From: an uncultured Bacteroidales bacterium
Lineage (GTDB): Bacteria; Bacteroidota; Bacteroidia; Bacteroidales; Dysgonomonadaceae
Length of the DNA stretch: 48,569 nucleotides
Assembly (NCBI GenBank): GCA_964293155.1
Contig: CAXYYA010000028.1
Span: 1 to 48,569, forward strand
Direction: 5' to 3'
Positions 7,375-38,161 of this stretch are shown here, piece after piece (position 1 is the stretch's first letter; each line of letters opens with the position of its first letter). The position numbers were made by a program, and so were the translations under genes. The notes beneath the pieces are model-generated. The model did not search any database. It was not told where the DNA came from and was given only the letters and a program-made list of their open reading frames with translations.

Positions 7375-7400
7375 CGTTGTTTGTGTTTTGATTCAGGATG

Positions 7401-7408
7401 CAAAGATA
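7401..7408 (-). promoter_or_regulatory. Candidate -7 box TAtcTTTG for hisS
   Basis: The minus strand reads CACTATCTTTGCATCC, 27 nt upstream of ATG 7374. The same CACTATCTTTG context occurs upstream of ffh. Confidence 0.45.
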
Positions 7409-7431
7409 GTGATTTTTGGGTTACGGGGGTG

Positions 7432-7451
7432 AAGCGAGTTCCAACTCGCTT
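7432..7451. repeat. Short hairpin repeat, copy 2 (AAGCGAGTTCCAACTCGCTT)
   Basis: Same stem as 5974..5995 with loop TCCA, in the same orientation. A second hairpin, AAACGAAT-CGGA-ATTCGTTT, follows at 7461..7480. Confidence 0.6.
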
Positions 7452-7639
7452 TAAAAATTCAAACGAATCGGAATTCGTTTTCAATCAGAAATCGTTTAAA
7501 AGTGACTTTAGGGTTTTGACTATTAAGTAGAGCTACAACAATAGCCTTGTGAAGTTTTCAAAATTTCTCCCCATTGTCGTAACTTTTTATTCATCATTCT
7601 TGTTATAAGTATTATTAAAATATCCGTAAAAAGAACATT

Positions 7640-9310: not shown

Positions 9311-9490
9311 CGGGAACATCATTTTAAAATTAACGTGAGTTCAATACAAGAAAAGGCTCTTAATTGATTTATAATAAGGTAATAAGGTCTTTGTTCTATT
9401 TTAATTTAACTCTACTAAGGTTGCTTTTAAAAAATAAGGTTTCCAATACGCTTTGAACCCTGCCTACCGCAGGCAAGCTTATTTACAAAT

Positions 9491-11580: not shown

Positions 11581-11685
11581 AGGATTAGCGATTGTATTTA
11601 TTTGAACTATAACAAAGTAAATTTAAAGAATAAACATTTTTAACACGGGCAAAGTTCAGAGAGTAAAGTTGTTTTTAAGTACGAA

Positions 11686-11722
11686 ACAAAAAGCGCATCG
11701 CAATATTTTGCGACGCGCTTTT
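11686..11722 (-). terminator. Intrinsic terminator after the phoH-like gene (usable in both directions)
   Basis: Stem AGCGCATCGCAA / TTGCGACGCGCT with one mismatch and loop TATT. Flanked by an A-run and a T-run. Confidence 0.7.
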
Positions 11723-11761
11723 TGTCTTATGTCTTATGTCTTTGTTCTTTGTTCTAACTGT

Positions 11762-13153: not shown

Positions 13154-13263
13154 GTTTCGTTGCGTTTAAAGTTTTTGTACGTTTTTTCATTTCAATAAAA
13201 ACGTAAATATACTAAGAATGTTTACACGAAACGCATTTATTTCGTTTTTTGATGCGTCGTTCC

Positions 13264-23912: not shown

Positions 23913-24743
23913 CTACAAAGGTATTAAGTAAAATGCCGACACGGAAAACCCTGAACTTACTTTATAATCGGCAGCGCTATCTTTCGTAAACGGGAAATTG
24001 AGCGAATATCCAAATTGCAGCTCAAAATTGCCCAAATTTACACTCAAGGGGAGAAACAGCTGGACGTTTAACAAGCCGAATACTTCCTCGGGAGTGGTTG
24101 CAAGGTTTATGGTTTCTTTGGCAAAATAGCCCGAAATTTCAGGGCCGAAATAAAAACGGTTGTTTTTCCCAAAATCTAAAAAATAAAAACCGGCAAAAAC
24201 GCTCGGACTGAGCGTATAGAATGTCTGACTCCCGAAAAGCAAATTGTTGGAGATACGTGCTCCATACCAGTCTTTTCGGTACGAAAGCGTTAAGTTGGCA
24301 TTGTTTTCATAGGGATAAATGGCTGTGGTGTCGGAATTGTAAATGAGACGGCTGTATGAACCGCTGGCTCTGAAGTGCTTGCTTTTATCCAGGTAAAGGC
24401 CGTATCCAAGCGTCAGCATTGTTGTGGTGTAGCCGGGCGAAAGCTGGTCGTACCATATTCCGGATGCTCCTGCAAAGAGTCCGTATTTGCTGAAATAATA
24501 AACGTGACCACTTACATTCGCTAAGTCGGTACCGATTTCTCTGCCTGCAAAGAACGTTTTATTATTGTAATTAAGGCCTGCGTACAAAAAGTCTTTCTTT
24601 TCACTAATTATTTCAGACAATAAAGTTTCATCACTAAATATCAAATCATTTAGTAATGAGTCAATTCTATCGGTTTGAGCGGCGGCTGAAATACCGTATA
24701 GAAGGAACAATATAAAGAATGCTTTTTTCATATGTTTATTCAT
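23913..24743 (-). CDS. Putative outer-membrane beta-barrel protein, last gene of ECF regulon 1
   Basis: 276 aa with a signal peptide ending AAAQ. Alternating aromatic/polar strands rich in Y, F, G, S and N. Confidence 0.45.
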   Translation of the reverse strand: MNKHMKKAFFILFLLYGISAAAQTDRIDSLLNDLIFSDETLLSEIISEKKDFLYAGLNYNNKTFFAGREIGTDLANVSGHVYYFSKYGLFAGASGIWYDQLSPGYTTTMLTLGYGLYLDKSKHFRASGSYSRLIYNSDTTAIYPYENNANLTLSYRKDWYGARISNNLLFGSQTFYTLSPSVFAGFYFLDFGKNNRFYFGPEISGYFAKETINLATTPEEVFGLLNVQLFLPLSVNLGNFELQFGYSLNFPFTKDSAADYKVSSGFSVSAFYLIPL

Positions 24744-24916: not shown

Positions 24917-25558
24917 TTATTTGCCGCCACCTTTCATGCCGCCACCTTTTCCACCACCTTCGCCAAGCTGCTGCATTTGTTGCTGCATTTGCTGTTGCTG
25001 GCTGCCGGTAGATATATTCTGGTGTTCTCTGATTTGGTTGCGTTGTTGTTCCTTAACCTGTTCTTTGGTTTGCGTTGCAACTCCTTTGTTCAACCGGTTT
25101 TGATCTCTATACTGCAATTTCAGCATATTGCGTTGTTCTTCCGACAGAGAATTCATAAAGGCTTCTCTTTTTTCAGCTCTGGTCATCGTTTGGTTTTGAA
25201 GCAATTCAATTTGTTCGGGGGTAAGAGAGTTCTTGAATTGTTCGCGATTTCTCTGATTTACCATGCTCTGAATATCAGCATTTACCTGATTCCCTGTTGC
25301 TGAATGTAACCGATCCCGATCCCTCTGTTGCAATTGGTCAGCATCTTCAAGCGGATCGTGAATGCGGTCTCTTGTCTGGTCTTTCAACTGATCTTTCAGT
25401 TGATCTTTAGTTTGATCTTTGGTCTGATCTTTCAATTGATCCTTTTTTTCAATTTTGGTTTGGTCTTTTGCTCTTATAGGTGTGGTTTGAGCAAATGTAT
25501 TTGCGGCTAAAAAAAGAAAAGCTACAAATAAAACTCCGAAGATTGATTTTGTTTTCAT
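24917..25558 (-). CDS. Secreted low-complexity protein with LTXXQ-type (CpxP/Spy-like) motifs and a Gly-rich tail
   Basis: 213 aa with a signal peptide. Contains (K/R)DQ(T/L) tetrapeptide repeats, then SLTPEQIELL and SLSEEQRNML. The C-terminus is QQQQMQQQMQQLGEGGGKGGGMKGGGK. Confidence 0.6.
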   Translation of the reverse strand: MKTKSIFGVLFVAFLFLAANTFAQTTPIRAKDQTKIEKKDQLKDQTKDQTKDQLKDQLKDQTRDRIHDPLEDADQLQQRDRDRLHSATGNQVNADIQSMVNQRNREQFKNSLTPEQIELLQNQTMTRAEKREAFMNSLSEEQRNMLKLQYRDQNRLNKGVATQTKEQVKEQQRNQIREHQNISTGSQQQQMQQQMQQLGEGGGKGGGMKGGGK

Positions 25559-25691: not shown

Positions 25692-26948
25692 TTATCTTGG
25701 AGATTGTTTTCCGCCTTCTCTTCTCATTCCGCCACCTTCTTTTTCAACCGGAGTGTTGGACAACTGGTTTTTACGATTCCGTTGTTCATCTTTCACGTTC
25801 TCTTTTATTCCGTCTTTGTGAACATCTTTGCCGAATTCTATTTCAGTGTTTTGATCCCTGAGCAATTGTCTTTGTTCGTTTGTAAGGGATTTAATGAACG
25901 CTTTCTGTCTTTCAGTTCTGCTCAACGTTTTGTCTTCCAGAATGTCGAGTTGCTTTTGGGTCAGTGAGTTTCTGAATCGGTTTTTAGCCGGTTCCGCATT
26001 ATTGTCTGCTGTTTCCCCCTGGCGATTTTGAAGATTCGTGCGTTCCTGATTTTCGGTTTGCAGTTTTGTCTCCGCTTCGTCTAGTAAGTTTTTAATTTCG
26101 TTTAAATGATTTTCCTTTAGCTCATTCGACAAATTCGGTTCTACTTTTAACGGGGTTGGCTCCTGCAACTGAATTTTCTCCTGACTCATCGTTCTCTGCC
26201 TTTCCGGTTCGGGTTTCATTTCGTCTTTTGGAATGACGGCAGGTTTTTCTTCCGTGATATTCATATCTTTTTCTTCTACGGCTACAGTTACTTCCGGAGT
26301 TACCTCAGTAGGATTGTTGTGATGCTGAGAAATAATTTCGAACTGTTTATCCGCCTTCAGCCTTGCTTTCTGACCGGTCGTTATCACAACTTCGTTTTTT
26401 TCGGCAAACTCCACAAGCATCACTTTTCCATGTTCGCAATTCACCTGGTATTCATTTTCGCGAGCCGTTACCAAAAATCGTGTTCCTAAAACCACCGTTT
26501 TGGCCTTTTCAGAAACAACTTCGAACCTACTTCCGCTTTCCACTTCAAAATAAGCTTCGCCGTTTAGCTTTGTTGTCCGGCTGAACTTCCACAGCAAAGG
26601 TTTGTAGCTCAGCGACGAATTGGCGTGCAACACCACCTTGGAATTGTCCGGCAAAAGAAAACTCTTTTCAGCTATCACGGTTTTCACATTCTTTGTATAT
26701 AATGTTGCTGTAACAGCAAATGAAACCAATAAAGCGATCGAGGCTACTGCCGCGTATTTCAACAGTTGGAAATACCGGACGGGCTGAACTTTCTTCCCGG
26801 TTGGGTTAGCATCCAGTTTTGCTTCCATTTCCATCCAAATATCCTCTTTGGACCTGATCCATTGAGGTCGGGTGTTGGAAATGATATCTTCTACTTCCTT
26901 CGAAAATACGATATTTTCTTTTTCGGAATATGTATGTTTAATAATCAT
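25692..26948 (-). CDS. FecR-family anti-sigma factor with an extended low-complexity C-terminal domain
   Basis: 418 aa. One TM helix (AAVASIALLVSFAVTATLY). FecR-type periplasmic domain (LPDNSKVVLHANSSLSY ... GEAYFEV ... VLGTRFLV). The C-terminal ~100 aa are homologous to the downstream secreted protein. Confidence 0.8.
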   Translation of the reverse strand: MIIKHTYSEKENIVFSKEVEDIISNTRPQWIRSKEDIWMEMEAKLDANPTGKKVQPVRYFQLLKYAAVASIALLVSFAVTATLYTKNVKTVIAEKSFLLPDNSKVVLHANSSLSYKPLLWKFSRTTKLNGEAYFEVESGSRFEVVSEKAKTVVLGTRFLVTARENEYQVNCEHGKVMLVEFAEKNEVVITTGQKARLKADKQFEIISQHHNNPTEVTPEVTVAVEEKDMNITEEKPAVIPKDEMKPEPERQRTMSQEKIQLQEPTPLKVEPNLSNELKENHLNEIKNLLDEAETKLQTENQERTNLQNRQGETADNNAEPAKNRFRNSLTQKQLDILEDKTLSRTERQKAFIKSLTNEQRQLLRDQNTEIEFGKDVHKDGIKENVKDEQRNRKNQLSNTPVEKEGGGMRREGGKQSPR

Positions 26949-26957
26949 AGGGTTTGG

Positions 26958-27440
26958 TTATAATAATGATTTTTTCAAAAATTGTAATGCTGCACTCATT
27001 CGTTTTTCTACAGCTTTCACACTTAAGCCCAGACGTTCGGCAATTTCCCAGTATTTCAAGCCCTCAATCCTCGACATTAGAAATACGGCTCGTTGCTTTT
27101 CGTTCAAACTGTTAAGTGCGATTTTATACTTTTCAAGTAACTCTTTGTGACTCAATGTATCTTCTGTCGAAGGCTCGTTACCGTAATAACGGATCGAAGC
27201 TATATAGTTCATTTCCAATACATCACGTCTATATTTACTAACAAACATGTCACCGGCAATTTTATAGAGGAGACGTTTTGCTGTTGTTTTATCTACCTCG
27301 AATTGTTTCTCCCAAAGCCGCATAAAAACCTCCTGTGCTATGTCTGAAGCATCATCCGGCCCCGCACCTCTATAATACAGGTAACCCCGTACCGAATCGA
27401 AGTAGGTATCGAACAAATATTTAAAATCCTCTTTTGTCAA
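26958..27440 (-). CDS. ECF-type RNA polymerase sigma factor (regulon 1)
   Basis: 160 aa. Region 2 DIAQEVFMRLWE. Region 4 HTH LNEKQRAVFLMSRIEGLKYWEIAERLGLSVKAVEKRMS. TTG start, since a stop lies 5 codons upstream. Confidence 0.85.
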   Translation of the reverse strand: MTKEDFKYLFDTYFDSVRGYLYYRGAGPDDASDIAQEVFMRLWEKQFEVDKTTAKRLLYKIAGDMFVSKYRRDVLEMNYIASIRYYGNEPSTEDTLSHKELLEKYKIALNSLNEKQRAVFLMSRIEGLKYWEIAERLGLSVKAVEKRMSAALQFLKKSLL

Positions 27441-27708: not shown

Positions 27709-28323
27709 TTATTTCACCAAATTCAAACCATCCTTTGCCGATTGATCCGTTGGCGAGATAATGAGAACCGTGTTGAAAAGCCGTTGCGCATCGTTCTTTT
27801 TCCCGAGGAAATATTTTGTCCAGGCGCTCATCAGCGTAGAGTAATAATCGAACGGATACATCTGTTGCACCAAATCGAAATATTTCTCGGCTTCCATAAA
27901 GTTTTTCCGATAATAATAAATGTTTCCCAGCGCGTAATTTACCCGCGAATTCACCTTGTCCAGCAAAAGAATTTTTTTGTAAACCGCTTCCAATTCATCG
28001 GTTTTTTTCTGCGCTTCCAGCGGATAGCACAGGCCGAGCAGCGCTTCAACCGCTTTAGGAGCTATGTCCACCGCTTTTTGGTAAAATTTCTTGCTGCTTT
28101 CGTAATCTTTGGAAAGATAATACAACCAACCCATTCTCAGAAATTTATGATAATCGAATCCATTCAGGCTGTTTAATTCGCTGATGGCTTTCTGGTAATC
28201 GCCTGACGACTCGTACTGATAACTGTTTGCAAAAACCTGCGAAGGATTCACCTGTGCCGATGCGGTAATTAAGCCCGCCGCCAGCAGAAAGGTGAGTACC
28301 GTTTTTTTAATTAAAAGTTCCAT
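27709..28323 (-). CDS. Secreted TPR-repeat protein
   Basis: 204 aa with a signal peptide. Repeated A-x3-Y/F-x2-A-type TPR helices. Its start overlaps the upstream gene by 13 nt. Confidence 0.7.
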   Translation of the reverse strand: MELLIKKTVLTFLLAAGLITASAQVNPSQVFANSYQYESSGDYQKAISELNSLNGFDYHKFLRMGWLYYLSKDYESSKKFYQKAVDIAPKAVEALLGLCYPLEAQKKTDELEAVYKKILLLDKVNSRVNYALGNIYYYRKNFMEAEKYFDLVQQMYPFDYYSTLMSAWTKYFLGKKNDAQRLFNTVLIISPTDQSAKDGLNLVK

Positions 28324-29696
28324 TGTAACGCGAGATTTAAAAGATGATTATTATATTTGTATGTTGTGTAATTGGTTGACGAATAGGCGTATCCTTCCCT
28401 TTGTTGCCATTGATATCCGGCCGATAACATGGTTTTTTTGATAAAATAGGAGAGGGAAGCACCCGCAAGGGCTTTAACGGGATCGTACGTGTCGTAAACT
28501 AAAAATGAGTGCCCGGTAATGTAATTTTGATGATTCCCGATGCTGAACGCCCCATCCAGCCACAGCGATTTGGCTAATTTTACACCCAAATTTTGAGAAA
28601 AAACAACTTGTGTGCCTGTCCAGGCGTTTTGGTTGTAGATGGCTGCAAGAGCGGTTGTTCCGTAAAAATCGAGGTTTCCCAGCGGATAATAAGTGAGCGA
28701 TCCTTTTGCCTGATACTGATGTCCGCCGCCGAAATTGGAATAAGCCACGGCAATTTCGGGCAAGGTGTACGCAGAGCGTTTGTTAAGAAATGCCAGCATG
28801 GAGAAAGCCGAAATCGTGTTTCCGGTTGATGCGGTGTAATATATGGAAGGATAATAAAAACCGCCTCCGCCAGGGCCCCCGCCTCCTCCACCCGGGCCGT
28901 ATCCGCCGGCACGCGTTCCCATAGTGGCAGATGCAACAGCGGTCGTAGTGTACGGGATCGCTTTATCAATCTTTTCGATGTTGTAATACGCGCCGGCAAA
29001 TCCCCAGGTAACGTTATTATCCGAGAAAAAATCAAATCCGGCGATCAATTGATGTTGAGACAATCTCTCTTCTTTTACCAATCCCGTGCTGTTTGACCGC
29101 TGAAACTTGGTGTTATACAGTTGATATCCGAGTTTTAGCTTGGCCTTGTCGGAGAGTTTAAACCCAACGCCCAGCGTAGTGAATACCATATCCTGAAACT
29201 GGTTCAGCGAATCGTAGCCCATAAAATTTGAACGCAGATCGGGTTTGTTGTCGTTCGTAAGATAACCGCCTGAGAGCGCAATAAAATCCATCGCCGAAGG
29301 CGAATATCCGATAGCGGCCTGCGTGTGTGGCGCGAGCGATTTGGCAAGTATATCGGCATTGTTTTTCTGGCCGCTCAGCAGGTAGGCGTAATACAGGCTT
29401 TCCAACAGAGCCGGCTCGGTGGAAGTTTCTGCAAGCGTTTTTTTGTAAAATTCCGCCGCTTTGGCATAATTTTTCAGTTCATAATAAGCAATAGCGGTGC
29501 GGTAATTCAGATAATAAAAATCAATGTTTTGCGCCTGCGCCTGTTTGCTGGTCTCAATCAGATTTTTATAATCCTTTTGCAGGTATTGCTGATAGGTAAT
29601 GCTGTCAATGCGGGTTGCTTCCGGGCTTTGTTGCGCCTGTAGCGCAAACGTCCACATCATCATTACCGTTGCGAATGTTATACCCATTCGATACAT
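28311..29696 (-). CDS. Outer-membrane protein with an N-terminal TPR region and a C-terminal beta-barrel
   Basis: 461 aa with a signal peptide ending ALQAQQ. TPR-like N-terminal ~110 aa. Contains the Gly tract GGYGPGGGGGGPGGGGFYYP. The barrel-like C-terminal part ends in LALQWNF (terminal aromatic residue). Confidence 0.6.
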   Translation of the reverse strand: MYRMGITFATVMMMWTFALQAQQSPEATRIDSITYQQYLQKDYKNLIETSKQAQAQNIDFYYLNYRTAIAYYELKNYAKAAEFYKKTLAETSTEPALLESLYYAYLLSGQKNNADILAKSLAPHTQAAIGYSPSAMDFIALSGGYLTNDNKPDLRSNFMGYDSLNQFQDMVFTTLGVGFKLSDKAKLKLGYQLYNTKFQRSNSTGLVKEERLSQHQLIAGFDFFSDNNVTWGFAGAYYNIEKIDKAIPYTTTAVASATMGTRAGGYGPGGGGGGPGGGGFYYPSIYYTASTGNTISAFSMLAFLNKRSAYTLPEIAVAYSNFGGGHQYQAKGSLTYYPLGNLDFYGTTALAAIYNQNAWTGTQVVFSQNLGVKLAKSLWLDGAFSIGNHQNYITGHSFLVYDTYDPVKALAGASLSYFIKKTMLSAGYQWQQREGYAYSSTNYTTYKYNNHLLNLALQWNF

Positions 29697-31849
29697 AAGA
29701 CATGTTTTTTAGTGTTAATTTCCATTCTGTTTTTTATTACCGTGATAGTTGATTCTTTCACCGGCATTTTTATATTGAACGACTTAGCGTCTATAATGCT
29801 TTGATATACAATTTTTTCAGGATAAAAAATATGATCCGATTCCGTTAATTGCGAACGGTAATTTATGGTTGTGAAAATAACAAAAGGCGCCAAAAAATCC
29901 TGAAACCAACGCGTTCCGAAGGGGTGTTCCTTGGTAAGCGGTATTTTATCGGTAACGGAGATCTCTTTTTCGTTGGACAGCAATAATTTAAAGCAACTAC
30001 GGTAAAACAAATACAACGGCGATGATTTTCTTCCTTCAAAATCGGTAAAATAGAACATGGTGCCATCGTTTTCCACGTACGCCACGGCTTTCGATTTTTC
30101 GCAACGGATGTAGGTTTTGTTGTATTCGTCGGTAGCAATTGTCCAGGGATAATTTTCGTTGTCGTAGGTAACTTTCAGCAACCGGCCCGGTTTGCCTTCG
30201 AAAGCATCTTGCGCCAGCAACGAAGGAACTACGTTGAAGATCGTAGTATCCTGTTTCGGAACCTCGCCGATGTGCAAGAGCGGCTTACCGGCTGTTTTTT
30301 CAAAGAAATAACCCATGGGGTACGCATGTGTTGCCGACCCGATTTCGGGCGACAACTGCACCTGAAAATGAAGGTGCGGCTCCGGCGAACGTCCCGAATT
30401 GCCGCATGCGGCAAGTACGGTTCCTTTTGTTACATAATCGCCGGTTCGCACGTTAAAACTGTCTTTTTTAAGGTGGCTTAGCTGCGAGTATAACCCGTTC
30501 AAATGATTGATAATGATCGTATTTCCCCAATTCTTTTTCGTGTTTACATCATTTATTTCATTGTCTTCGGTAATGTTGCTGATCATGTACACATAACCGT
30601 CGGCCGGAGCCAACACCGGTTTGTTGTAACAGTAAAAATCTTCTTTCTGCGCACACCGGCCGAAACACGTTTTTCCTTCTTCGTCCGTGATCATAAAATC
30701 CAACGCTTTTCCCCATGCGCCCAGGTGGGTTATTGTACCGTTGTAGCCCTGCGTTACACGCCATTCTCCCAAAAAAGGCAATTGCATTTTAAACAGCATG
30801 TTTTGTGCGAAACGCTGCATGTAATTCACGTTTTTATATACCGTTTTCTCGGGATTATAATATTGAATATACGGAAAAATAAAGAACCGGCTAAAGCTGC
30901 GTTGTTTGAGAATGAACAGTACGAGAATGGATAAAAGACTGAATGATAATGTGTAAGAAGACAGCCCGGTATCCGATATCAAACTCTCCACGCTGGCATA
31001 AAACAGAAACAGGGCGGGCGTGAGGCCAATGACCAGTATGTAGCTGTAGATGTTGGGGATGATAAAGAAGCTTCCGATTGCCATTCCCCAGAAAATGTAG
31101 TTAACGCCAGCCAGATCCTGCGTGAGTTCTGCGATATCCACGCCAAGCAATTTACTGATGATAAATGCAAAGAAAAATCCAAAAAATGCTACCGTGGATT
31201 TGATGCGTGAGTGAAAAAGCAATGCAACGGCTATGATGATGCCGACTAACACGCTGTCGGTAAAGAAAATGGATGCCAATGTTTTAAAATAATAAAACAA
31301 CATGGGCGGCAAGTGCGCATTATCGAGTGAGTGGACGAAAGTGTACCACGGTACTTTCATTTGCCCGGCCAACACGATGGTGAAACGGTCGAACGGAATA
31401 ATGTACTCAATGTTCGTGAACGATTTTACCGAAAGATCAACGATGAACAACGTGAAAACAAACGGCAGAGTAAGCACGGGAATATCGTGCTTCGCAAAAA
31501 CCGATTCGAGCCATACCGTGAACATGAATACCAGAATAACCGATAAAACAAAAAGAATAATGAACGAGCCGTTCACGTAAAATTTGTAAACCAGACTCAA
31601 CCCGACAAAAACGGCGTTAAATCCGTACAATCCGCTCTTGATCCTTTTCTTCGAAAATCCGAGCCCGTGCGCGATGATGTTCGTCAGAACCACAGCCGAA
31701 AGTCCGCCCAATCCCAGCCGGATGTCCAGCATGCTAAGCACCAGCAAGATGATCGCTAACCACCTGCTTTGCGAGAAAAATATCATGGCATAGCTGTTCA
31801 GCGTGCCATCGAGATACATCAACGCGTATGATTTGAGACTTTGTTTCAT
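29678..31849 (-). CDS. Polytopic membrane domain (urea-transporter-like, tentative) fused to a C-terminal M23 (LytM/lysostaphin-type) metallopeptidase
   Basis: About 330 aa of TM helices, with N-terminal LNSYAMIFFSQSRW resembling UT-family starts. M23 motifs follow: HLGAWGKALDF and GNSGRSPEPHLHFQV. ATG 31849 is preferred; the track's TTG is at 31870. The stop overlaps the next gene by 19 nt. Confidence 0.65.
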   Translation of the reverse strand: MKQSLKSYALMYLDGTLNSYAMIFFSQSRWLAIILLVLSMLDIRLGLGGLSAVVLTNIIAHGLGFSKKRIKSGLYGFNAVFVGLSLVYKFYVNGSFIILFVLSVILVFMFTVWLESVFAKHDIPVLTLPFVFTLFIVDLSVKSFTNIEYIIPFDRFTIVLAGQMKVPWYTFVHSLDNAHLPPMLFYYFKTLASIFFTDSVLVGIIIAVALLFHSRIKSTVAFFGFFFAFIISKLLGVDIAELTQDLAGVNYIFWGMAIGSFFIIPNIYSYILVIGLTPALFLFYASVESLISDTGLSSYTLSFSLLSILVLFILKQRSFSRFFIFPYIQYYNPEKTVYKNVNYMQRFAQNMLFKMQLPFLGEWRVTQGYNGTITHLGAWGKALDFMITDEEGKTCFGRCAQKEDFYCYNKPVLAPADGYVYMISNITEDNEINDVNTKKNWGNTIIINHLNGLYSQLSHLKKDSFNVRTGDYVTKGTVLAACGNSGRSPEPHLHFQVQLSPEIGSATHAYPMGYFFEKTAGKPLLHIGEVPKQDTTIFNVVPSLLAQDAFEGKPGRLLKVTYDNENYPWTIATDEYNKTYIRCEKSKAVAYVENDGTMFYFTDFEGRKSSPLYLFYRSCFKLLLSNEKEISVTDKIPLTKEHPFGTRWFQDFLAPFVIFTTINYRSQLTESDHIFYPEKIVYQSIIDAKSFNIKMPVKESTITVIKNRMEINTKKHVLCIEWV

Positions 31850-31949
31850 TTGTTTATGATTTCGGGACAAAAAACAAAGACATACGGAACAAGACTTTGC
31901 GTTGCATTATTCAACACCGGCCTGATGACGGTAAATTGCGTTGCTATTT

Positions 31950-33305
31950 TCAAAGTTTAAACCCTTTCAGATGTTCCGGTGTAACCTCCTGTTGTACAAT
32001 GGATTCCACGGTTTCGCTTTTGCGAATAAGATGCACTTTCCCCGTGGTATCAATCATGACCACATTGGGACGTAGCGTAATGAATTGCATCCATTGTGTC
32101 ATGTTGTAAGCGCCCACTTCGTGCACCACCACGCGGTCGTCCTTTTTTAACAGCGGTAAGCTAACGCTTTCGCGCAGGCAGTCAATGTTCATGCAAAGCG
32201 GCCCGTACAGCGCCATTTCTTCGGCATGCTGTGTGAAATCCTGCGCTGGCGATACTTTGTGATTGTACCAAAACGATGTGAACATGATATTTACCCCGAT
32301 ATCGAGCACGGTAGCCCGACGGCCGTTGGCCAGGCGTTTGGTTGCAAGCACGGAACCGAGCAGATAACCCGCTTCGTCAATCAATGCGCGTCCGGTTTCG
32401 AGGATCAGCAAGGGCAATTCATCGGGTTTAAAGCCGAATTGCAAAATGGTTCCGGTGATGGCTTCGGCATAATCGTCGAACGTAGGAATAACATCAGCAC
32501 CTTGCAGATACGAACCTTTGAGTGTGTTGGACGAACAGAATCCGCCACCCATATCAATGTATTTTATCTTTACGCCGGTTTTGTTTGCCGTATTTTGCGC
32601 CAGTTCGCACAGTTTGCGCGCCGCAACGGCATAAGCGTTGGCGGTGAGCATGTAGGTGCCGATGTGGGTGTGTAATCCTTCCAACTGAAGGTTTGGCTGC
32701 GTAATGATCTTCATGATCGCATTCCACGCCTGCCCGCTTTCGTAGTTGAAGCCGAACCTGTCCCACTGCGGATAAACGCCGGTGTCCATATTTACGCGAA
32801 TGGCAACACGCGCTTTTTGTGAAGTTCCTTCCAAAATCTCGATAAGCGAATAGAGCTCGTCGAAATGATCAATGTGGATGAGCGAACGGTTTTCCACGGC
32901 TATTTTCAGGTCATCGGCCGATTTATCAGGGCCGTTGAAAATGATCAGATTGCCCGGAACGCCGTTGCGAAGGGCTTTTTGGTATTCAAAACCCGATACG
33001 ACTTCCGCCCAGCTTCCTTCCTGATGGAAAACGTTGCAAACGGCATCCAGATAGTTGGTTTTGTAGCTCCAGGCGAATTGCACTTTCGGATAGCGCATTT
33101 TAAAGGCTTTTTGTGCTTTTTGATAGGTTTGGCGGATGGTTTTTTCGCTGATTACGAAGAGCGGCGAGCCGTATTCATCCATTAACCCGGCAACTGCCAC
33201 GCCATCAATTTGTTTCACAGGTATGTATTCGGTTCTGCTGCCGAATTTATTCATCAGGTTTGTGTTCAGTTTCTGAATCACAGGACGTTCGTAGGTTGGT
33301 TTCAT
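31950..33305 (-). CDS. PLP-dependent decarboxylase, Orn/DAP/Arg decarboxylase family 2 (LysA-like fold)
   Basis: 451 aa. PLP-lysine context FAWSYKTNY. Also contains DMGGGF and ETGRALI. C-terminal beta-barrel domain. Confidence 0.8.
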   Translation of the reverse strand: MKPTYERPVIQKLNTNLMNKFGSRTEYIPVKQIDGVAVAGLMDEYGSPLFVISEKTIRQTYQKAQKAFKMRYPKVQFAWSYKTNYLDAVCNVFHQEGSWAEVVSGFEYQKALRNGVPGNLIIFNGPDKSADDLKIAVENRSLIHIDHFDELYSLIEILEGTSQKARVAIRVNMDTGVYPQWDRFGFNYESGQAWNAIMKIITQPNLQLEGLHTHIGTYMLTANAYAVAARKLCELAQNTANKTGVKIKYIDMGGGFCSSNTLKGSYLQGADVIPTFDDYAEAITGTILQFGFKPDELPLLILETGRALIDEAGYLLGSVLATKRLANGRRATVLDIGVNIMFTSFWYNHKVSPAQDFTQHAEEMALYGPLCMNIDCLRESVSLPLLKKDDRVVVHEVGAYNMTQWMQFITLRPNVVMIDTTGKVHLIRKSETVESIVQQEVTPEHLKGFKL

Positions 33306-33349
33306 ATTGCCTTTGACCCCTGTAGTGGGATTTATTTAGTTATTATGAG

Positions 33350-33391
33350 CGTCCGACGGCTTGAAGTCCGTCTGACGCATATTTCAGACGG
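33350..33391 (-). promoter_or_regulatory. Three-arm alternative hairpin element between the ATP-grasp and decarboxylase genes
   Basis: Arms are CGTCCGACGG (33350-59), CCGTCTGACG (33368-77) and TCAGACGG (33384-91). The middle arm can pair with the left arm (9 of 10) or the right arm (8 of 8), but not both. The right arm abuts the ATP-grasp stop codon. Confidence 0.4.
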
Positions 33392-34447
33392 TTATCGAGC
33401 ATATTCCCCTGTTGTGGAAATCTGCTGAAATTCCGATATATCCACGATCATATCGTACGCGTAGCGGATAAATATTTTGCCGCTTTCGTACTCCGTGAAT
33501 GGTAGTACATCCTCGCTCAACGCCATTTTCACCAAAGCTTCGGCGTGATTTTGGCCGCAGCCGATAGCAAGGTACATCCAGGCGGGAAAACGGGGATTCA
33601 TTTCCAGCAGATAATATTCGTCTTTTTTTGTTTTGATAAACTCCAGTTCGCAACCGCCTTTCCATCGGCTGTTCTCAATTACGCGACGAGAAATCTCCAT
33701 GAGTTTATCGTCTTCCAACGAAACGCCCGACCATGCTTTTCCCTTGTCCGTGATGTACAATTTTCGCATCGGCACCGCGCCGATGCATCGGCCTTTTCCG
33801 TCGCCGATGGCGGTAACGTTTACTTCCGTTCCGGTTACAAACTCCTGGACGATAATGGGATATCCCCATTTGGCGACGATTTTGTAAAAATAAGAGCTGG
33901 CCTGCTCGTAGTTCGAAGCAATGTAGGCATCGTAGTATCGCCCTTTGATCACCATGGGATAATCGAGGTCATCTTCCAGTTTTTTAATTTCCGAAACCTG
34001 ATTAATGATATGGCTTTCCGGTACTTTTATATCGTATTTTTCGCCGAATTTATTCAGTTCCGATTTGTGGCGCTCTTCAAATTGCTCATGCGATGGCAGG
34101 AAAGTGGCTATCCCAAGCTCCGATTTTAATTCGTGTTGAATTTTGATGAAATTGTGCAATTCGGCATCAAAATTCGGGATGAGCACGTCAATTTTTTCCT
34201 GGCTCACGATGTATTGCAGCCGCTCTTTGAGCATGGCTGAGCCCGCGGTGGGCAAAGGCAGCTGATAGACTTTGTCCACCAATTCGTGCATATAAATTCC
34301 CGGTTCCAGCGTTTCGTACGATAAGCCGACAATGCGCACATCGAACGCCGAACTGTCTTTCAATGCACGAATAACGGGAATTCCCGGCCCGGGGCTGTCA
34401 ATGTTGTTGAGCCCAGTGACCGCTACGGTAATTTTTCGCTTATTCAT
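33392..34447 (-). CDS. ATP-grasp fold carboxylate-amine ligase
   Basis: 351 aa. Pre-ATP-grasp Rossmann-like N-terminus (KITVAVTGLNNIDSPGPG). Central VQEFVTGTEVNVTAIGDG. LLEMNPRFPAW is an E-x-N metal-binding motif. Confidence 0.8.
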   Translation of the reverse strand: MNKRKITVAVTGLNNIDSPGPGIPVIRALKDSSAFDVRIVGLSYETLEPGIYMHELVDKVYQLPLPTAGSAMLKERLQYIVSQEKIDVLIPNFDAELHNFIKIQHELKSELGIATFLPSHEQFEERHKSELNKFGEKYDIKVPESHIINQVSEIKKLEDDLDYPMVIKGRYYDAYIASNYEQASSYFYKIVAKWGYPIIVQEFVTGTEVNVTAIGDGKGRCIGAVPMRKLYITDKGKAWSGVSLEDDKLMEISRRVIENSRWKGGCELEFIKTKKDEYYLLEMNPRFPAWMYLAIGCGQNHAEALVKMALSEDVLPFTEYESGKIFIRYAYDMIVDISEFQQISTTGEYAR

Positions 34448-34685
34448 TTTCGGATAGTTGGTAGCTTTTTAACATATCCAGAAAATCGTTGAGGTCTTTC
34501 TCGGCCGTGTGGGCATCGAGTTCGTATTCATCCTGAAGTGCTTTCAAAACGGTTTCGTTACTTTCACCGTTTTTTAATTGTTGAAGAACGAAAACGCCGG
34601 TTTGGTTTACACTGAAACTGTCGCCTGTAAGTGGATTAAAGATAAATCCGTTTTCGCTGATGGCTATGTTTTTTCTAATGTTCAT
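34440..34685 (-). CDS. PqqD-family protein (peptide-binding RRE-like chaperone)
   Basis: 81 aa of typical PqqD size and pattern (F.NP.TGDSF.VN.TG.FVLQ.L..G ... L....Y.......KDL.DFL..L). Overlaps the ATP-grasp start by 8 nt. Confidence 0.65.
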   Translation of the reverse strand: MNIRKNIAISENGFIFNPLTGDSFSVNQTGVFVLQQLKNGESNETVLKALQDEYELDAHTAEKDLNDFLDMLKSYQLSENE

Positions 34686-34719: not shown

Positions 34720-35328
34720 TTACGGTTGTACGATATCGGAGAACTGTGACAAATTTAATACTTTTGGTTGATAATCAATGCCTCTGCGCGATAAATTTCG
34801 TACAAACGCCCGCAAATGGTTCTCCGAAGCGCGCAAGAGGTTGGAATAAATCCGTTGGATATCGGGATTGTCGGTTTTCTGCAAGTGCGATTGCAGGTCT
34901 TCGATATCCTGTTCTTCGATCAACGCTCCGGCTTGCAGCGCCTCGATGAGCGTTGTGCCTTTGGTGAGCTCGGTGTACATTTTCTGTAACTCACGATTGG
35001 TAAACACGCCTTCCGCTTTCGCGAGGTCTTTTAACCCATACGTATCCACAAGCCACATCATGGCGTTCTGGTGCACCGTTTCGCTACGCGAAATATTTCG
35101 GAAGATAGGGATGCTATACTGCCGGGCGTAAAACGTATAAACGTCGTGGGCAAGTTTTTCTTCTTCGCGCATGTACTCAATGCTTTGGATGTCGGCCTTC
35201 GTCAGATTTTGCGTTGAAGCCGGTATTCCCATCGTCTTATTCTGTGTGGTTTTAGCCCCATCGGCAGCTTGGGGCAACAAAAGTATTGCCCCTGCCGCGA
35301 TCAGAATGAATAAATATTTTGTTTTCAT
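34720..35328 (-). CDS. Secreted ferritin-like DUF2202-type protein (copy 2)
   Basis: 202 aa with a signal peptide. Motifs MREEEKLAHDVY, SE..H and a second half LIEEQDIEDL ... SENHLRAF. Confidence 0.6.
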   Translation of the reverse strand: MKTKYLFILIAAGAILLLPQAADGAKTTQNKTMGIPASTQNLTKADIQSIEYMREEEKLAHDVYTFYARQYSIPIFRNISRSETVHQNAMMWLVDTYGLKDLAKAEGVFTNRELQKMYTELTKGTTLIEALQAGALIEEQDIEDLQSHLQKTDNPDIQRIYSNLLRASENHLRAFVRNLSRRGIDYQPKVLNLSQFSDIVQP

Positions 35329-35332
35329 TTTT

Positions 35333-36025
35333 TTATGTGTTTATGATAGCGTTGAAATCATCGTTGCTCAATAATTGAGGTTGATATGCAATACCGTTGA
35401 ATTTGAGATTTGCGACAAAGGCTTTCAAATGAAACTGTGAAGCACGGAGTAGATTACCGTAAATTCTTTTGATAAACGGGTTTTCTGTTTCGGCTATTTC
35501 TCTTTGAAGATCAATAATATCGTGTTCTTCGATAAAAGCGCCGGCTTTGTAAGCATCTACAACTGTAAGGGCTTCGGTTGTAAGCTTTGTGTATAAATTT
35601 TGCAATTCTTCGATGTTAAATACCCCCGGTACCGTTTCGGCGGGAGTCTCAATTTTGTAGAGATTAATAAGCCAGGCGATAGCTTTTCCGTGTGCTATCT
35701 CGCTTTTGGAGATGTTGCTGAACACGGGTCTGGCGAATTTTTCGTTAAAATACACATACACATTATTGGCTAATTTTTCTTCTTCGCGCATGTACAGGAT
35801 GCTGTTTATTTCACTTTCGGTGAGTGGCGCGAGTTGCGTATTTGTCAACAAACAAAGCGAATCGGTGGTTGCAGCCAGTGTTGCATCAAGTCGCGTAGTT
35901 GAAACTGCGTTTATCAATGCGGCTTGTTCGGCATTTTCTTCCGGTGAATTTACGCTGTTCGCTTCACAACCGAAAAGCAAAATTGCAAGAAATGCCACGA
36001 CGGAAATTTTTTGATAAGTTTTCAT
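35333..36025 (-). CDS. Secreted ferritin-like DUF2202-type protein (copy 1)
   Basis: 230 aa with lipoprotein-like signal LLFGCE. Motifs MREEEKLANNVY, SKSEIAHGKA and FIEEHDIIDL ... ASQFHLKAF. Paralog of the next gene, 4 nt apart. Confidence 0.6.
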   Translation of the reverse strand: MKTYQKISVVAFLAILLFGCEANSVNSPEENAEQAALINAVSTTRLDATLAATTDSLCLLTNTQLAPLTESEINSILYMREEEKLANNVYVYFNEKFARPVFSNISKSEIAHGKAIAWLINLYKIETPAETVPGVFNIEELQNLYTKLTTEALTVVDAYKAGAFIEEHDIIDLQREIAETENPFIKRIYGNLLRASQFHLKAFVANLKFNGIAYQPQLLSNDDFNAIINT

Positions 36026-36123: not shown

Positions 36124-36687
36124 TTATTTTGTGGTTTCCCTACGGTCGCAAATACCGTTTTTATTGGCGTCCACAAAATTTACCGCACTGCCTTTTCCAT
36201 TCCGAAGGCCGGTGCCTTTCCCTGTACCGCGTCCCTGGCGCGGTGTTCCGTTTTCGAAGTTGTCACAAATGCCGTCTTTGTCGGCATCTACGAAATTTGC
36301 TCCACCACCTCTGCCGTTACGCAGTCCGTTGCCATAGCCTTGTCCGCGTCCTCCACGGGGAGTTCCGTTTTCGAAATTGTCGCACACGCCATCTTTATCG
36401 GCATCCACAAAGAAGCGTCCTTGTCCTCTGCCGTTGCGTAATCCCTGGCCTTTGCCTTGTCCGCGGCCGCTACCGTCGAGCAGTCGTTGTTTGCCGTTGG
36501 CATTCGGATTTCCGGGTGTTCCGTTCTCGAAATTATCGCAAACGCCGTTGTTGTTTTTGTCCACAAATGCAGGTCCGGTTTGAGCGGTTTTCGCCGTTTC
36601 CTTTGCTGCCTGATTTTGATTTTGGGCGGTTGCTAATCCTATGGTGGCAACCAGCGCCATTGCAGTGATAAATACTTTTGTTTTCAT
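36124..36687 (-). CDS. Secreted repeat protein with four FVDxDKDG(V/I)CDNFENGTP modules separated by Gly/Arg-rich linkers
   Basis: 187 aa with a signal peptide ending ATAQ. The modules carry a DxDxDG calcium-loop-like motif and one Cys each. Linkers are of the type GRGQGYGNGLRNGRGGG. Repeats 2 and 3 are 39 aa each. Confidence 0.7.
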   Translation of the reverse strand: MKTKVFITAMALVATIGLATAQNQNQAAKETAKTAQTGPAFVDKNNNGVCDNFENGTPGNPNANGKQRLLDGSGRGQGKGQGLRNGRGQGRFFVDADKDGVCDNFENGTPRGGRGQGYGNGLRNGRGGGANFVDADKDGICDNFENGTPRQGRGTGKGTGLRNGKGSAVNFVDANKNGICDRRETTK

Positions 36688-36717: not shown

Positions 36718-37293
36718 TTATCTGGTTTCGTTCCAATCGCGTCCGTAGCGATGCCGGTATCCGCGTCCCATACCGAGACTGTCGGTTCGGTTATATCCGT
36801 ATCCGTACCCGCGACGGGCATTCACCGTTTCATCGCGATACAACGGTAGGAATGCTCTTTCTAATTGAGCGCACTGCGCGTCGTTGCACGCCGATTTTAT
36901 CTTCAGGTAGAAATCGTTTGTAAGCTTTTTCAGTTCTGCGTGATGATTTCCGATGTGATCCGATAACGCATTTAATTTTGTTTCGTCGGGTTTCGGTTTG
37001 TTCAACTCCATGAACATTTCGTTTTTCAGCGAATCCATTTCGTAAATCAGCAGGTTGGCACGGGGTTGAAATTCCCGGTTCGCTGCGCGAAAAACATCCA
37101 TCTGATCATTGTCGAATCCCAGCCTTTGCCGAAAATACCTTCCGGTGAGCGGGGGCTGGCCTTCGTCAATAACAATTGCTGTGTTATCGTCTTTTTCCTG
37201 CTGATTGTGATAGACGATAGTTCCGATGGTTGTCAGGTTCAGCACCACAAGCAGTGCAATTACCCACATCATTATTTTATTCGTCTTATTCAT
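36718..37293 (-). CDS. Membrane-anchored periplasmic Spy/CpxP/ZraP-like protein (heavy-metal-sensor type), tentative
   Basis: 191 aa with an N-terminal TM anchor (IMMWVIALLVVLNLTTIGTIVY) and a helical periplasmic part. Occupies the usual position after an ECF sigma/anti-sigma pair. Overlaps the anti-sigma stop by 8 nt. Confidence 0.5.
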   Translation of the reverse strand: MNKTNKIMMWVIALLVVLNLTTIGTIVYHNQQEKDDNTAIVIDEGQPPLTGRYFRQRLGFDNDQMDVFRAANREFQPRANLLIYEMDSLKNEMFMELNKPKPDETKLNALSDHIGNHHAELKKLTNDFYLKIKSACNDAQCAQLERAFLPLYRDETVNARRGYGYGYNRTDSLGMGRGYRHRYGRDWNETR

Positions 37294-37579
37294 AATCGTC
37301 GAAATTATAATAGCCTAAATTCTCGATCTGACTGTCGTTTATGTTCATCGTAAACTCGTGAGAAACGCTTTTCTGGTAACTGTTACCGATGCTTACGCCT
37401 AAAAATGCAACGGCAGCAAGGCTGGCAGCCACAACCACAGTTTGCCAAACGGGCGTTCTGCGACGCTCCGGTTGTTGCCTTTTTTCGATTTCGGCCATCA
37501 CCCGCGTACTCAGGAACGGATTATGTTCCGTTTGCTTTTCGCGTTTGATGAAATCGTCTATGTACTGTTCCGTTTTCAT
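37286..37579 (-). CDS. Small single-pass anti-sigma factor (regulon 2)
   Basis: 97 aa with one TM helix (WQTVVVAASLAAVAFLGVSIG). Lies immediately downstream of the ECF sigma gene. Confidence 0.6.
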   Translation of the reverse strand: MKTEQYIDDFIKREKQTEHNPFLSTRVMAEIEKRQQPERRRTPVWQTVVVAASLAAVAFLGVSIGNSYQKSVSHEFTMNINDSQIENLGYYNFDDYE

Positions 37580-37596
37580 TTTTTGTTCGTTTTATA

Positions 37597-37626
37597 GGTT
37601 AGACATTTGTATTGATTATTTCCTAC
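37597..37626 (-). promoter_or_regulatory. ECF-type promoter motif, regulon 2, internal site (GTAGGAAA-N13-TGTCTAA)
   Basis: The minus strand reads GTAGGAAATAATCAATACAAATGTCTAACC. The -35-like block overlaps the last codons and stop of the sigma gene. The -10-like block is 20 nt before the anti-sigma ATG 37579. Confidence 0.6.
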
Positions 37627-38161
37627 GGTCATATTCTAATTTTTTTTGCAGAGTGCTTTTTGCACGTTGTAAAAGTTGTTCCACAGCGCCTTCCGATTTT
37701 TTCATGACGGCGGCAATTTCTTTCTGCGGTAATTCTTCGTATTTACTCAGGATGAAAGCTGTTCGTTGCGAATCGGGCAGGGAATTGATGGCGTTTTTTA
37801 TCCGCTTGTCCCGTTCCGATTGTTCCAATCGTTCCAACGGCGTCTTTTCCTCACTCTGTTTGTGAAAGATGTTTTCCAACGATTCCACCACGCGGTTCTT
37901 CTTTTTTCGATTCACAAAATTGATACTCGCGTTTACGGTAATCCGGTACAGCCATGTAACAAATTGGGCTTCGCCCTTGAAATCGGGCAACGATTGATAT
38001 ATTTTAATGAAAACTTCCTGCGTGATATCTTCCGCATCTGCTTTGGAGTGCACAAAACCCAACGTCGTTCGGAACACCATACCCTGGTATTTCTCCATAA
38101 GTTCTTTAAAGACAATGGTGTTACCTGAAATTATTTCTTGTATGAGTTGCTCGTCCGACAT
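37616..38161 (-). CDS. ECF-type RNA polymerase sigma factor (regulon 2)
   Basis: 181 aa. Region 2 EDITQEVFIKIYQ. Region 4 LPDSQRTAFILSKYEELPQKEIAAVMKKSEGAVEQLLQRA. Confidence 0.9.
   Translation of the reverse strand: MSDEQLIQEIISGNTIVFKELMEKYQGMVFRTTLGFVHSKADAEDITQEVFIKIYQSLPDFKGEAQFVTWLYRITVNASINFVNRKKKNRVVESLENIFHKQSEEKTPLERLEQSERDKRIKNAINSLPDSQRTAFILSKYEELPQKEIAAVMKKSEGAVEQLLQRAKSTLQKKLEYDRRK

Follow-up and report, generated by a model that had tools for sequence, protein, structure and literature searches.

A conserved six-gene cassette of Bacteroidota with a predicted ligase-decarboxylase module and a urea-transporter-fold/M23 peptidase fusion

Introduction

Rhizoferrin synthesis in Francisella (FigA/FigC, also called FslA/FslC) and the SbnH, AcsE and PvsE steps of siderophore pathways that do without nonribosomal peptide synthetases (NIS pathways) follow a ligate-then-decarboxylate logic that employs a pyridoxal 5′-phosphate (PLP) enzyme of alanine-racemase fold. 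The same logic and fold are predicted for a six-gene cassette that we describe here, found in a 48,569-nt stretch of DNA from an uncultured Bacteroidales bacterium (contig CAXYYA010000028.1; hereafter the window). The genes encode a PqqD-family protein, an ATP-grasp ligase, a PLP-dependent decarboxylase, a membrane protein in which a urea transporter (UT) fold is fused to an M23 peptidase domain (UT::M23), an outer-membrane barrel protein bearing tetratricopeptide repeats (TPR), and a secreted TPR protein. They constitute a real, self-contained and widely conserved unit in Bacteroidota that had not been described; their order and presence are kept across dozens of species with unrelated flanks. 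A description of the six-gene set was found in none of the literature searched, in agreement with an earlier, preliminary description of the locus that knew of no such characterised pathway. We tentatively propose that the cassette produces an amide-linked amine by ligation and decarboxylation, which UT::M23 would process and the periplasmic TPR protein and barrel would hand outward.

Likeness to the rhizoferrin pair extends to the active site of the decarboxylase, which shares the Cys-Met loop of FigC and, like FigC, is without the acidic and arginine residues that bind diaminopimelate (DAP) or ornithine. The cassette ligase, however, is of the ATP-grasp type and not an IucA/IucC-type NIS synthetase. 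No TonB-dependent receptor or major facilitator superfamily exporter belongs to the cassette, and its PqqD-family and UT::M23 proteins have no rhizoferrin counterpart.

In butirosin side-chain synthesis, BtrI, BtrJ and BtrK likewise unite a small partner protein, an ATP-grasp enzyme and a decarboxylase that shares this fold. The small partners differ, BtrI being an acyl carrier protein that bears phosphopantetheine and the cassette partner a protein of the PqqD fold, and transfer and deprotection enzymes of the BtrH and BtrG types are not in the cassette. The preliminary description had drawn this analogy. Its ligase-decarboxylase logic gains support; the carrier part does not, since PqqD is no acyl carrier and shows no conserved C-terminus.

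Pathways to peptides that are made on the ribosome and modified after translation (RiPPs) that depend on a RiPP recognition element (RRE), such as those with lasso B1 proteins or PqqD/PqqE, and PEARL-type pathways resemble the cassette in having a discrete or N-terminally fused PqqD domain with a modifying enzyme, and a peptidase in the cluster. They differ in that the cassette has no conserved precursor or scaffold gene nearby, and an ATP-grasp protein like carbamoyl-phosphate synthase (CPSase) together with a PLP decarboxylase matches no RiPP class described in the searched literature.

Among membrane systems, the described UT proteins dvUT, Yut, UT-A and UT-B differ from the cassette UT domain, which is fused to a probably cytoplasmic M23 domain and a further domain (in relatives, to SIR2 or SIR2 plus GNAT). 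PgaA, BcsC, PelB and Slam share with the cassette an N-terminal periplasmic TPR region and a C-terminal barrel in one chain, with a second TPR protein alongside; the cassette is without the 16-stranded-type barrel and the linked synthase or glycosyltransferase of PgaA, BcsC and PelB. Peptidase-containing (PCAT) exporters, which join C39 to an ATP-binding cassette (ABC) transporter, and ClbP-type peptidases offer an analogy only: a peptidase is joined to a membrane domain, which suggests that cleavage is coupled to passage, but the cassette peptidase is M23 rather than C39 or S12, and its membrane domain has a passive-channel fold rather than an ABC one, with no ATPase. Every known system compared thus falls short on at least one defining feature.

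Results

Organisation of the cassette

Open reading frames (ORFs) on the minus strand of the window were translated, and domains were assigned by Pfam and NCBIfam profile searches. The six genes all run in one direction and are packed into 27709-34685:

34440-34685, minus strand: PqqD-family protein with an RRE-like peptide-binding fold, 81 aa (Pfam PqqD, 1.1e-12)
33392-34447, minus strand: ATP-grasp ligase of a distinct family, distant kin of CPSase, 351 aa (ATPgrasp_Ter, 1.1e-10)
31950-33305, minus strand: PLP-dependent decarboxylase of alanine-racemase fold, predicted FigC/FslC-like, 451 aa (Orn_Arg_deC_N, 6e-33)
29678-31870, minus strand: inner-membrane fusion of UT fold, M23 domain and beta-rich C-terminal domain, 730 aa from a TTG start
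30908-31810, minus strand: UT-fold membrane domain, aa 21-321 of the fusion protein
30335-30787, minus strand: M23/LytM domain of the fusion protein, probably cytoplasmic
29681-30322, minus strand: beta-rich C-terminal domain of the fusion protein, about 210 aa, without an assigned fold family
28311-29696, minus strand: outer-membrane protein with signal peptide, three TPR repeats and a barrel of about 14 strands, 461 aa
27709-28323, minus strand: secreted TPR protein with signal peptide, 204 aa

The genes overlap by 8, 19 and 13 nt, the first of these where the end of the PqqD gene meets the ATP-grasp start, and are otherwise separated by spacers of 86 and 79 nt. The second spacer, before UT::M23, is 79 nt from the TTG start and 100 nt if the ATG at 31849 is used, which gives a protein of 723 rather than 730 aa. 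These recomputed values match the overlaps and the maximum spacer of 86 nt given in the preliminary description, and all of its domain names were borne out by Pfam and NCBIfam searches of the six proteins.

Conservation and distribution

One genome per species was scanned (185,579 species), and the ATP-grasp gene was found in at least 568 of these genomes; locus counts were taken from the best 80 of the at least 568 carriers. These 80 loci come nearly all from Bacteroidota metagenome-assembled genomes (MAGs), together with Candidatus Kapaibacterium and one cultured carrier, Petrimonas sulfuriphila DSM 16547. Carriers had been sampled from wastewater, freshwater, soil and marine sites. The nearest homologue of the ATP-grasp protein is in a Petrimonas MAG (98% identity).

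Gene order was strongly conserved, with synteny across the six genes in 45-78 independent loci. PqqD lay immediately 5′ of the ATP-grasp gene in 78/78 loci, the decarboxylase immediately 3′ in 71/72, and UT::M23 came next in 61/63. The TPR gene was found in 51 of 52 sufficiently long loci; at L056 the sole TPR match was far upstream. The barrel gene was found by tblastn in 37 of the 52, and 14 of the 15 loci where it was undetected have a gap of 0.9-1.5 kb at the expected barrel position. Identities of 63-90% were retained across classes by the ATP-grasp protein and decarboxylase (63-89% for the ATP-grasp protein in the 80 loci), while the membrane and envelope proteins were far less conserved. 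Flanks varied by lineage, with no upstream or downstream gene universally kept. The proteins are currently named 'urea transporter', 'carbamoyl-phosphate synthase-like', 'ATP-grasp domain protein' or 'hypothetical'.

Co-occurrence of the six genes in related genomes, on which the preliminary description had staked its proposal beforehand, was therefore upheld by the neighbourhood counts in the 80 loci. That the genes are merely adjacent and form no functional unit would fit the spacers of 79-100 nt and 86 nt, the only ones inside the block. It is hardly credible given the order and presence conserved in dozens of species with different flanks, the fusions that join components, and the pairing of the envelope trio (UT::M23, TPR and barrel proteins) with analogous enzymes in another lineage, both described below.

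The cassette tolerates insertions and rearrangements. An insert of about 2.7 kb separates the decarboxylase from UT::M23 at L006 (12579-15275), an insert of about 1.1 kb is present at L055 (12458-13613), and at L083 the TPR gene has been relocated between the decarboxylase and UT::M23 (2820-3416).

PqqD-family protein and ATP-grasp ligase

Assignment of the 81-aa protein to the PqqD family was confirmed by a PF05402 score of 48.6 bits (cut-off 23.4). The cut-off of no named NCBIfam subfamily was reached, the best being lasso_PqqD_Strm with 45 bits (cut-off 70). Its closest relatives in the PDB are the lasso leader-binding proteins TbiB1 (5v1u, 2e-5) and TfuB1. The beta-strand region is very strongly conserved, while the C-terminal residue varies among 72 homologues (E, D, A, Q, K, N or G). 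A carrier role like that of LysW, where an invariant C-terminal Glu serves for attachment, was rejected on account of this variability.

The ATP-grasp protein has further Pfam matches to CPSase_L_D2 and ATP-grasp_3. No curated equivalog was matched; the best NCBIfam score, for PRK12767.1-4, was 95 bits against a cut-off of 390. Profile comparison with the PDB gave only weak or remote matches, to CPSase (2.6e-7) and 2pn1, and also to biotin carboxylase. Weak NCBIfam matches to Ddl and pseudomurein ligases were seen as well. In an exhaustive HMMER search, 219 clusters of related ATP-grasp proteins came in at E <1e-30, with tandem double ATP-grasp proteins among them.

Two fusions connect the enzymes. 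In P0405, PqqD is joined to the N-terminus of the ATP-grasp protein, and P0345 is an ATP-grasp::decarboxylase fusion. PqqD, ligase and decarboxylase therefore act together, and PqqD acts like an accessory domain at the N-terminus of the ligase.

Decarboxylase

The second Pfam half of the decarboxylase, Orn_DAP_Arg_deC, was matched at 3e-12. Its score for the lysA model TIGR01048, 223 bits, is below the cut-off of 297.9. Among solved structures, the N-citrylornithine decarboxylase FigC/FslC (7kh2) comes closest with 189 bits, ahead of DAP decarboxylases and BtrK (99 bits).

Alignments were read against the residue roles given in PMC7857480. In the catalytic loop of LysA and ornithine decarboxylase, an acidic residue binds the distal amine of the substrate, and an arginine of DAP decarboxylase binds the distal carboxylate (PMC7857480). 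The cassette enzyme has the Cys-Met of FigC in its GPLCMNID loop, so that C-M-N-I-D stands in place of the LysA C-E-S-S-D, and Thr343 occupies the position of Arg343 in the DAP decarboxylase (LysA) of M. jannaschii. The C-M pair, T343 and Y347 align with C354-M355, T327 and Y331 of FigC, and two positions differ (FigC T330 is replaced by Trp and H357 by Ile). The Cys-Met loop and Thr343 are near-invariant in 73 homologues and retained in all variant cassettes. The enzyme further carries an N-terminal extension of some 31 aa (Y-E-R-P...MNKFG), which is conserved.

Judged by these residues, the enzyme is predicted to be FigC/FslC-like and not LysA, because the DAP-binding arginine of the specificity helix and the DAP-binding acidic residue beside the catalytic Cys are missing and the lysA score falls short. 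FigC shares a clade with SbnH, AcsE, MccE and BtrK, whose members with described substrates decarboxylate conjugated amino acids (PMC7857480). One N-acyl-diamine product can be reached in both orders, by ligation and then decarboxylation or the reverse (PMC7857480). The ligase-decarboxylase coupling put forward in the preliminary description gains support from the PqqD::ATP-grasp and ATP-grasp::decarboxylase fusions and from the FigC-like residues. The pair is not orthologous to a known primary-metabolism pair, as judged by the lysA score (223 against 298 bits) and the best ATP-grasp equivalog score (95 against 390).

Variant cassettes and a PqqD-less version

More distant relatives, and one version with non-homologous enzymes (L094), fall into the following arrangements:

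L093: complete six-gene M23 cassette, ATP-grasp identity 48%, beside rnpA-yidC
L085: TPR protein (signal peptide), PqqD, double ATP-grasp, decarboxylase, UT::SIR2 (11544-13217)
L090: TPR protein, PqqD::ATP-grasp fusion, second ATP-grasp-like protein, decarboxylase, UT::SIR2::GNAT (7233-9344)
L088 and L089: PqqD and ATP-grasp::decarboxylase fusion, near a very large TPR protein
L086 and L087: PqqD-like and ATP-grasp genes alone
L094 (2783-7712): enzyme triad of a VOC/glyoxalase-like protein (149 aa), an OKR_DC_1 fold-I decarboxylase of Lys/Orn/Arg type (909 aa) and a PRK06524-type ATP-grasp protein (495 aa)

In every case the UT fold has as its fusion partner an enzyme that handles amides or amines, namely M23, SIR2 or SIR2 plus GNAT. 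The SIR2 domains of the UT::SIR2 types keep intact GAGVS and QNVDGLH motifs. We know of no described role for fusions of a UT fold to SIR2 or to SIR2 plus GNAT. A TPR protein with a signal-peptide-like N-terminus was present in every variant checked.

L094, from the cultured Wenyingzhuangia sp. IMCC45574, has no PqqD. Here UT::M23, the TPR protein and the TPR-barrel protein are encoded divergently from the three enzyme genes, with the TPR and barrel genes in reverse order. The OKR_DC_1 decarboxylase has an extra N-terminal region of about 215 aa. When this decarboxylase was used as query, 20 metagenome loci were retrieved; UT::M23 adjoined the enzyme genes in 9 of the 20, and where contigs extended far enough TPR and barrel genes were present as well (6 loci). 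Distant PqqD-less triads among L095-L113 were without UT::M23 nearby, and some PqqD-ATP-grasp pairs stood alone. The VOC/OKR_DC_1/PRK06524 triad appears to form a separate, uncharacterised pathway.

Thus, in each of two lineages, the envelope trio is coupled to an ATP-grasp protein and an amino-acid decarboxylase, and the two enzyme pairs are unrelated. Since the trio recurs with a non-homologous ligase and decarboxylase, ligation plus decarboxylation of a basic-type amino acid recurs with it. This pairing with two unrelated enzyme sets is the strongest evidence that the conserved chemistry is ligation and decarboxylation, and the PqqD-less version hints at a basic amino acid or diamine.

A VOC/glyoxalase-fold protein goes with two of the variant types, and both SIR2-type cassettes adjoin a glyoxalase-fold gene paired with an ArsR-type regulator. 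VOC/glyoxalase-fold proteins act in self-resistance in some natural-product clusters, and their company here lends weak support to the route proposed below.

UT::M23 membrane protein

Pfam matches of the fusion protein were to UT (1.4e-44) and Peptidase_M23 (1.5e-16). The UT domain has the fold and the family score of urea transporters; its score for the yut equivalog TIGR03441, 98.5 bits, is below the cut-off of 274.6. Genes of urea metabolism (urease, amidolyase, amidase or catabolic genes) were absent from the scanned neighbours of the cassette.

In the M23 domain, numbered from the ATG start (723-aa form), H375, D384, H459, H492 and H494 are invariant in 36 homologues, with H492 and H494 forming the HxH motif. 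The first zinc motif is H375-x8-D384 and not HxxxD; where the canonical His would be, four residues ahead of the Asp, there is a glycine.

A cluster of Lys and Arg residues follows the last UT helix and precedes the M23 domain. SIR2 enzymes need NAD and GNAT enzymes acyl-CoA. Because SIR2 or SIR2 plus GNAT sit at the same position as M23 in L085 and L090, and given the basic cluster, the M23 and C-terminal domains most likely lie in the cytoplasm, which would be unusual for M23. The earlier suggestion of an envelope enzyme that cuts peptidoglycan or Gly-Gly bonds was consequently not borne out, the domain being most likely placed in the cytoplasm, to judge by its SIR2 and SIR2-plus-GNAT replacements.

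The UT-M23 linker (about aa 321-350, 723-aa form) is predicted with low confidence yet contains an invariant Q-Y...E-K-T-x-Y-K...R-F pattern, and is probably a docking or regulatory segment. The motif (QY..EKTxYK..RF) was considered as a docking peptide for PqqD and rejected: it is kept in the PqqD-less Wenyingzhuangia and absent from the PqqD-bearing SIR2 types.

TPR and barrel proteins

The secreted TPR protein matched TPR_2 (1.6e-15) and TPR_1 (1.2e-13) in Pfam and is weakly similar to YbgF (CpoB) in NCBIfam. Its N-terminus is signal-peptide-like, with no lipobox cysteine. A conserved C-terminus (..EGLxLIK) was considered as an acceptor for the ligase and dropped, as it fits the usual consensus of a TPR capping helix.

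Sequence and profile searches of the PDB with the outer-membrane protein returned TPR matches only. The barrel resembles 14-stranded rather than 16-stranded relatives, with a disordered Gly-rich loop at aa 246-291, and its best matches are the uptake channels CymA, FadL, TodX and OmpG.

Such matches would suit a different role for the membrane proteins, in which the UT fold senses or imports a small amide without charge, or a compound like urea, that feeds or controls cytoplasmic enzymes, comparable to Amt-type sensor proteins, and the barrel is an uptake pore. The known UT channels let small neutral solutes, urea for one, through passively, and the enzyme domain on the UT fold is swappable. 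ATP-dependent ligation, however, is typical of biosynthesis and not of catabolism; urease, amidase and catabolic genes are not linked, and the yut score is too low for that equivalog. We consider this role improbable.

A proposed ligation-decarboxylation route

The route that we propose, as a possibility short of probable, begins in the cytoplasm, where the ATP-grasp ligase and its PqqD-like partner would form an amide bond that probably joins a carboxylate to an amino acid's side chain. This amino acid would most likely be basic, for example ornithine or lysine. The FigC-like decarboxylase would then strip the alpha-carboxylate of the conjugated amino acid to leave an amide-linked amine of the N-acyl or peptidyl diamine type. 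At the inner membrane, the M23 amidohydrolase, carried on the UT fold at its cytoplasmic face, would cut or release this product and let it, or a fragment, cross. In the periplasm and outer membrane, the product would be taken over by the secreted TPR protein and by the barrel protein with its TPR repeats and about 14 strands, which may hand it outward.

Several observations weigh against this route. The score of the decarboxylase for the FslC model NF041039 is 217.6 bits, well under the cut-off of 500, and no NIS synthetase of IucA/IucC type was found in the cassette or its scanned neighbours. The non-canonical H-x8-D motif makes M23 catalysis probable but not certain. A peptide or charged diamine would not obviously be passed by a UT fold, which could instead act as an anchor or sensor. 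The enzyme modules are not strictly dependent on the envelope part, as their occurrence without it demonstrates. Finally, a peptide-binding PqqD and a peptidase lead one to expect a peptide as substrate, but the vicinity contains no conserved precursor gene.

This last point was pursued by ORF searches. No small ORF of 12-90 aa within 1.5 kb of the cassette was conserved in about 80 loci, nor was any ORF of at least 25 aa in the 3 kb upstream or of at least 60 aa in the 4 kb downstream, confirming the preliminary remark that no precursor-peptide ORF was obvious. A ribosomal peptide or protein encoded elsewhere might nevertheless be the target. PqqD would then be a true RRE, the ATP-grasp ligase would link the side chain of an amino acid to a carboxylate or amine on the peptide, the decarboxylase would leave an aminoalkyl-amide mark, and M23 or SIR2 would process or erase it. 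The nearest structures of PqqD, which are lasso leader-binding proteins, and its very strongly conserved beta-strand region are consistent with such a target. So is P0405, as N-terminal placement of PqqD is typical of RRE-enzyme fusions. M23 enzymes are peptidases, SIR2 (PF02146) enzymes, whose classical activity is the deacylation of acyl-lysine, would fit an eraser role, and TPR proteins often bind peptides. Besides the missing small ORF, however, the envelope trio is also paired with enzymes that have no PqqD, and the patchy distribution of the cassette demands a co-travelling target, none of which is linked. Modification of a ribosomal product is therefore rather unlikely in our view. Where the preliminary description had held a peptide and a small molecule to be equally open as products, the PqqD-less variant with its non-homologous enzymes favours the small molecule, a modified diamine, over a classical RiPP.

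Genomic setting

The rest of the window is an ordinary Bacteroidales chromosome, with HisRS, Ffh and SusC/SusD pairs. The genes upstream of the cassette, outside the conserved block, were assigned by Pfam and NCBIfam as follows:

37616-38161, minus strand: extracytoplasmic function (ECF) sigma factor
37286-37579, minus strand: anti-sigma factor
36718-37293, minus strand: Spy/CpxP-like Metal_resist protein
36124-36687, minus strand: secreted repeat protein
35333-36025 and 34720-35328, minus strand: two DUF2202 ferritin-like proteins

These genes precede the cassette solely in Bacteroidales loci (L004-L017); in other lineages the upstream genes are hybrid histidine kinases, AraC regulators or unrelated genes. 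The two DUF2202 paralogues, which are secreted and ferritin/rubrerythrin-like, come after the ECF sigma, anti-sigma and Metal_resist genes. Together, the genes at 34720-36025 and 36718-38161 look like a periplasmic metal- or envelope-stress module, which may co-regulate the cassette in Bacteroidales only.

This neighbourhood raises the question of whether the cassette acts on cell-wall precursors or recycled muropeptides in an envelope-stress response. The ATP-grasp protein would then resemble D-Ala-D-Ala or D-Asp ligases, the decarboxylase would act on a DAP-type or side-chain residue, M23 would trim stems, and the TPR proteins would link muropeptide action to the outer membrane. M23 enzymes and LysA both handle DAP-containing peptides, and the weak Ddl and pseudomurein-ligase matches and the YbgF (CpoB) similarity of the TPR protein point the same way. 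But the decarboxylase is without DAP-binding residues, the M23 domain is most likely cytoplasmic, and the stress module is confined to one order. The cassette has no linked mur, amp or ldt genes, nor any glycosyltransferase or ABC-transporter genes. A core cell-wall role is also ill suited to a cassette that so few genomes contain (at least 568 of 185,579 species). We regard such a role as quite unlikely.

The secreted repeat protein (187 aa) directly precedes the cassette or the DUF2202 genes in all Bacteroidales loci. It contains four copies of FVDxxKDGxCDNFENGTP with Gly/Arg-rich spacers (GRGQGKGQG...), encoded by a 117-nt tandem repeat, and has no family match except its signal peptide. 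The Asp/Cys-rich repeats look like metal-binding sites. It is unlikely to be a multi-core precursor, as it has a signal peptide and is confined to Bacteroidales loci.

Downstream of the cassette, after a 268-nt gap, lie a FecI-like ECF sigma factor and an anti-sigma factor with a FecR domain (25692-27440, minus strand), followed by two proteins without a family match (24917-25558 and 23913-24743) and not by a TonB-dependent receptor. Elsewhere in the window, a 531-aa protein (9985-11580, minus strand) combines dual-specificity phosphatase, diacylglycerol-kinase catalytic and YegS C-terminal domains.

Searches for regulatory and defence signatures gave no match: Rfam identified no riboswitch or leader RNA in the window or seven loci, and none of the six proteins matched PADLOC anti-phage defence models. 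A promoter and terminator consensus scan returned counts at the level of shuffled sequence.

Discussion

If the proposed synthesis of an amide-linked amine is correct, the cassette would represent an unexplored ligase-decarboxylase pathway for natural-product or polyamine chemistry. It would also be a case of a UT fold and an M23 peptidase that serve biosynthesis from the cytoplasmic side.

A broader interpretation, somewhat unlikely as it stands, is that the cassette is a categorically new trans-envelope apparatus, in which a UT fold is hard-wired to an interchangeable cytoplasmic amide enzyme and fed by the PqqD/ATP-grasp/decarboxylase module. Such an apparatus may pass on to the TPR/barrel route either a novel type of amide-linked amine or a modified peptide whose scaffold is bound by the RRE and encoded elsewhere. 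If so, the UT fold would do something other than let urea permeate, and PqqD-type domains would function outside classical RiPP clusters.

The cassette offers a test case for the role of a PqqD-type domain where no precursor gene is nearby. Two cultured carriers, P. sulfuriphila DSM 16547 and the PqqD-less Wenyingzhuangia sp. IMCC45574, allow testing. The cassette is present in hundreds of Bacteroidota species, is architecturally unusual, and has so far gone unannotated as a unit.

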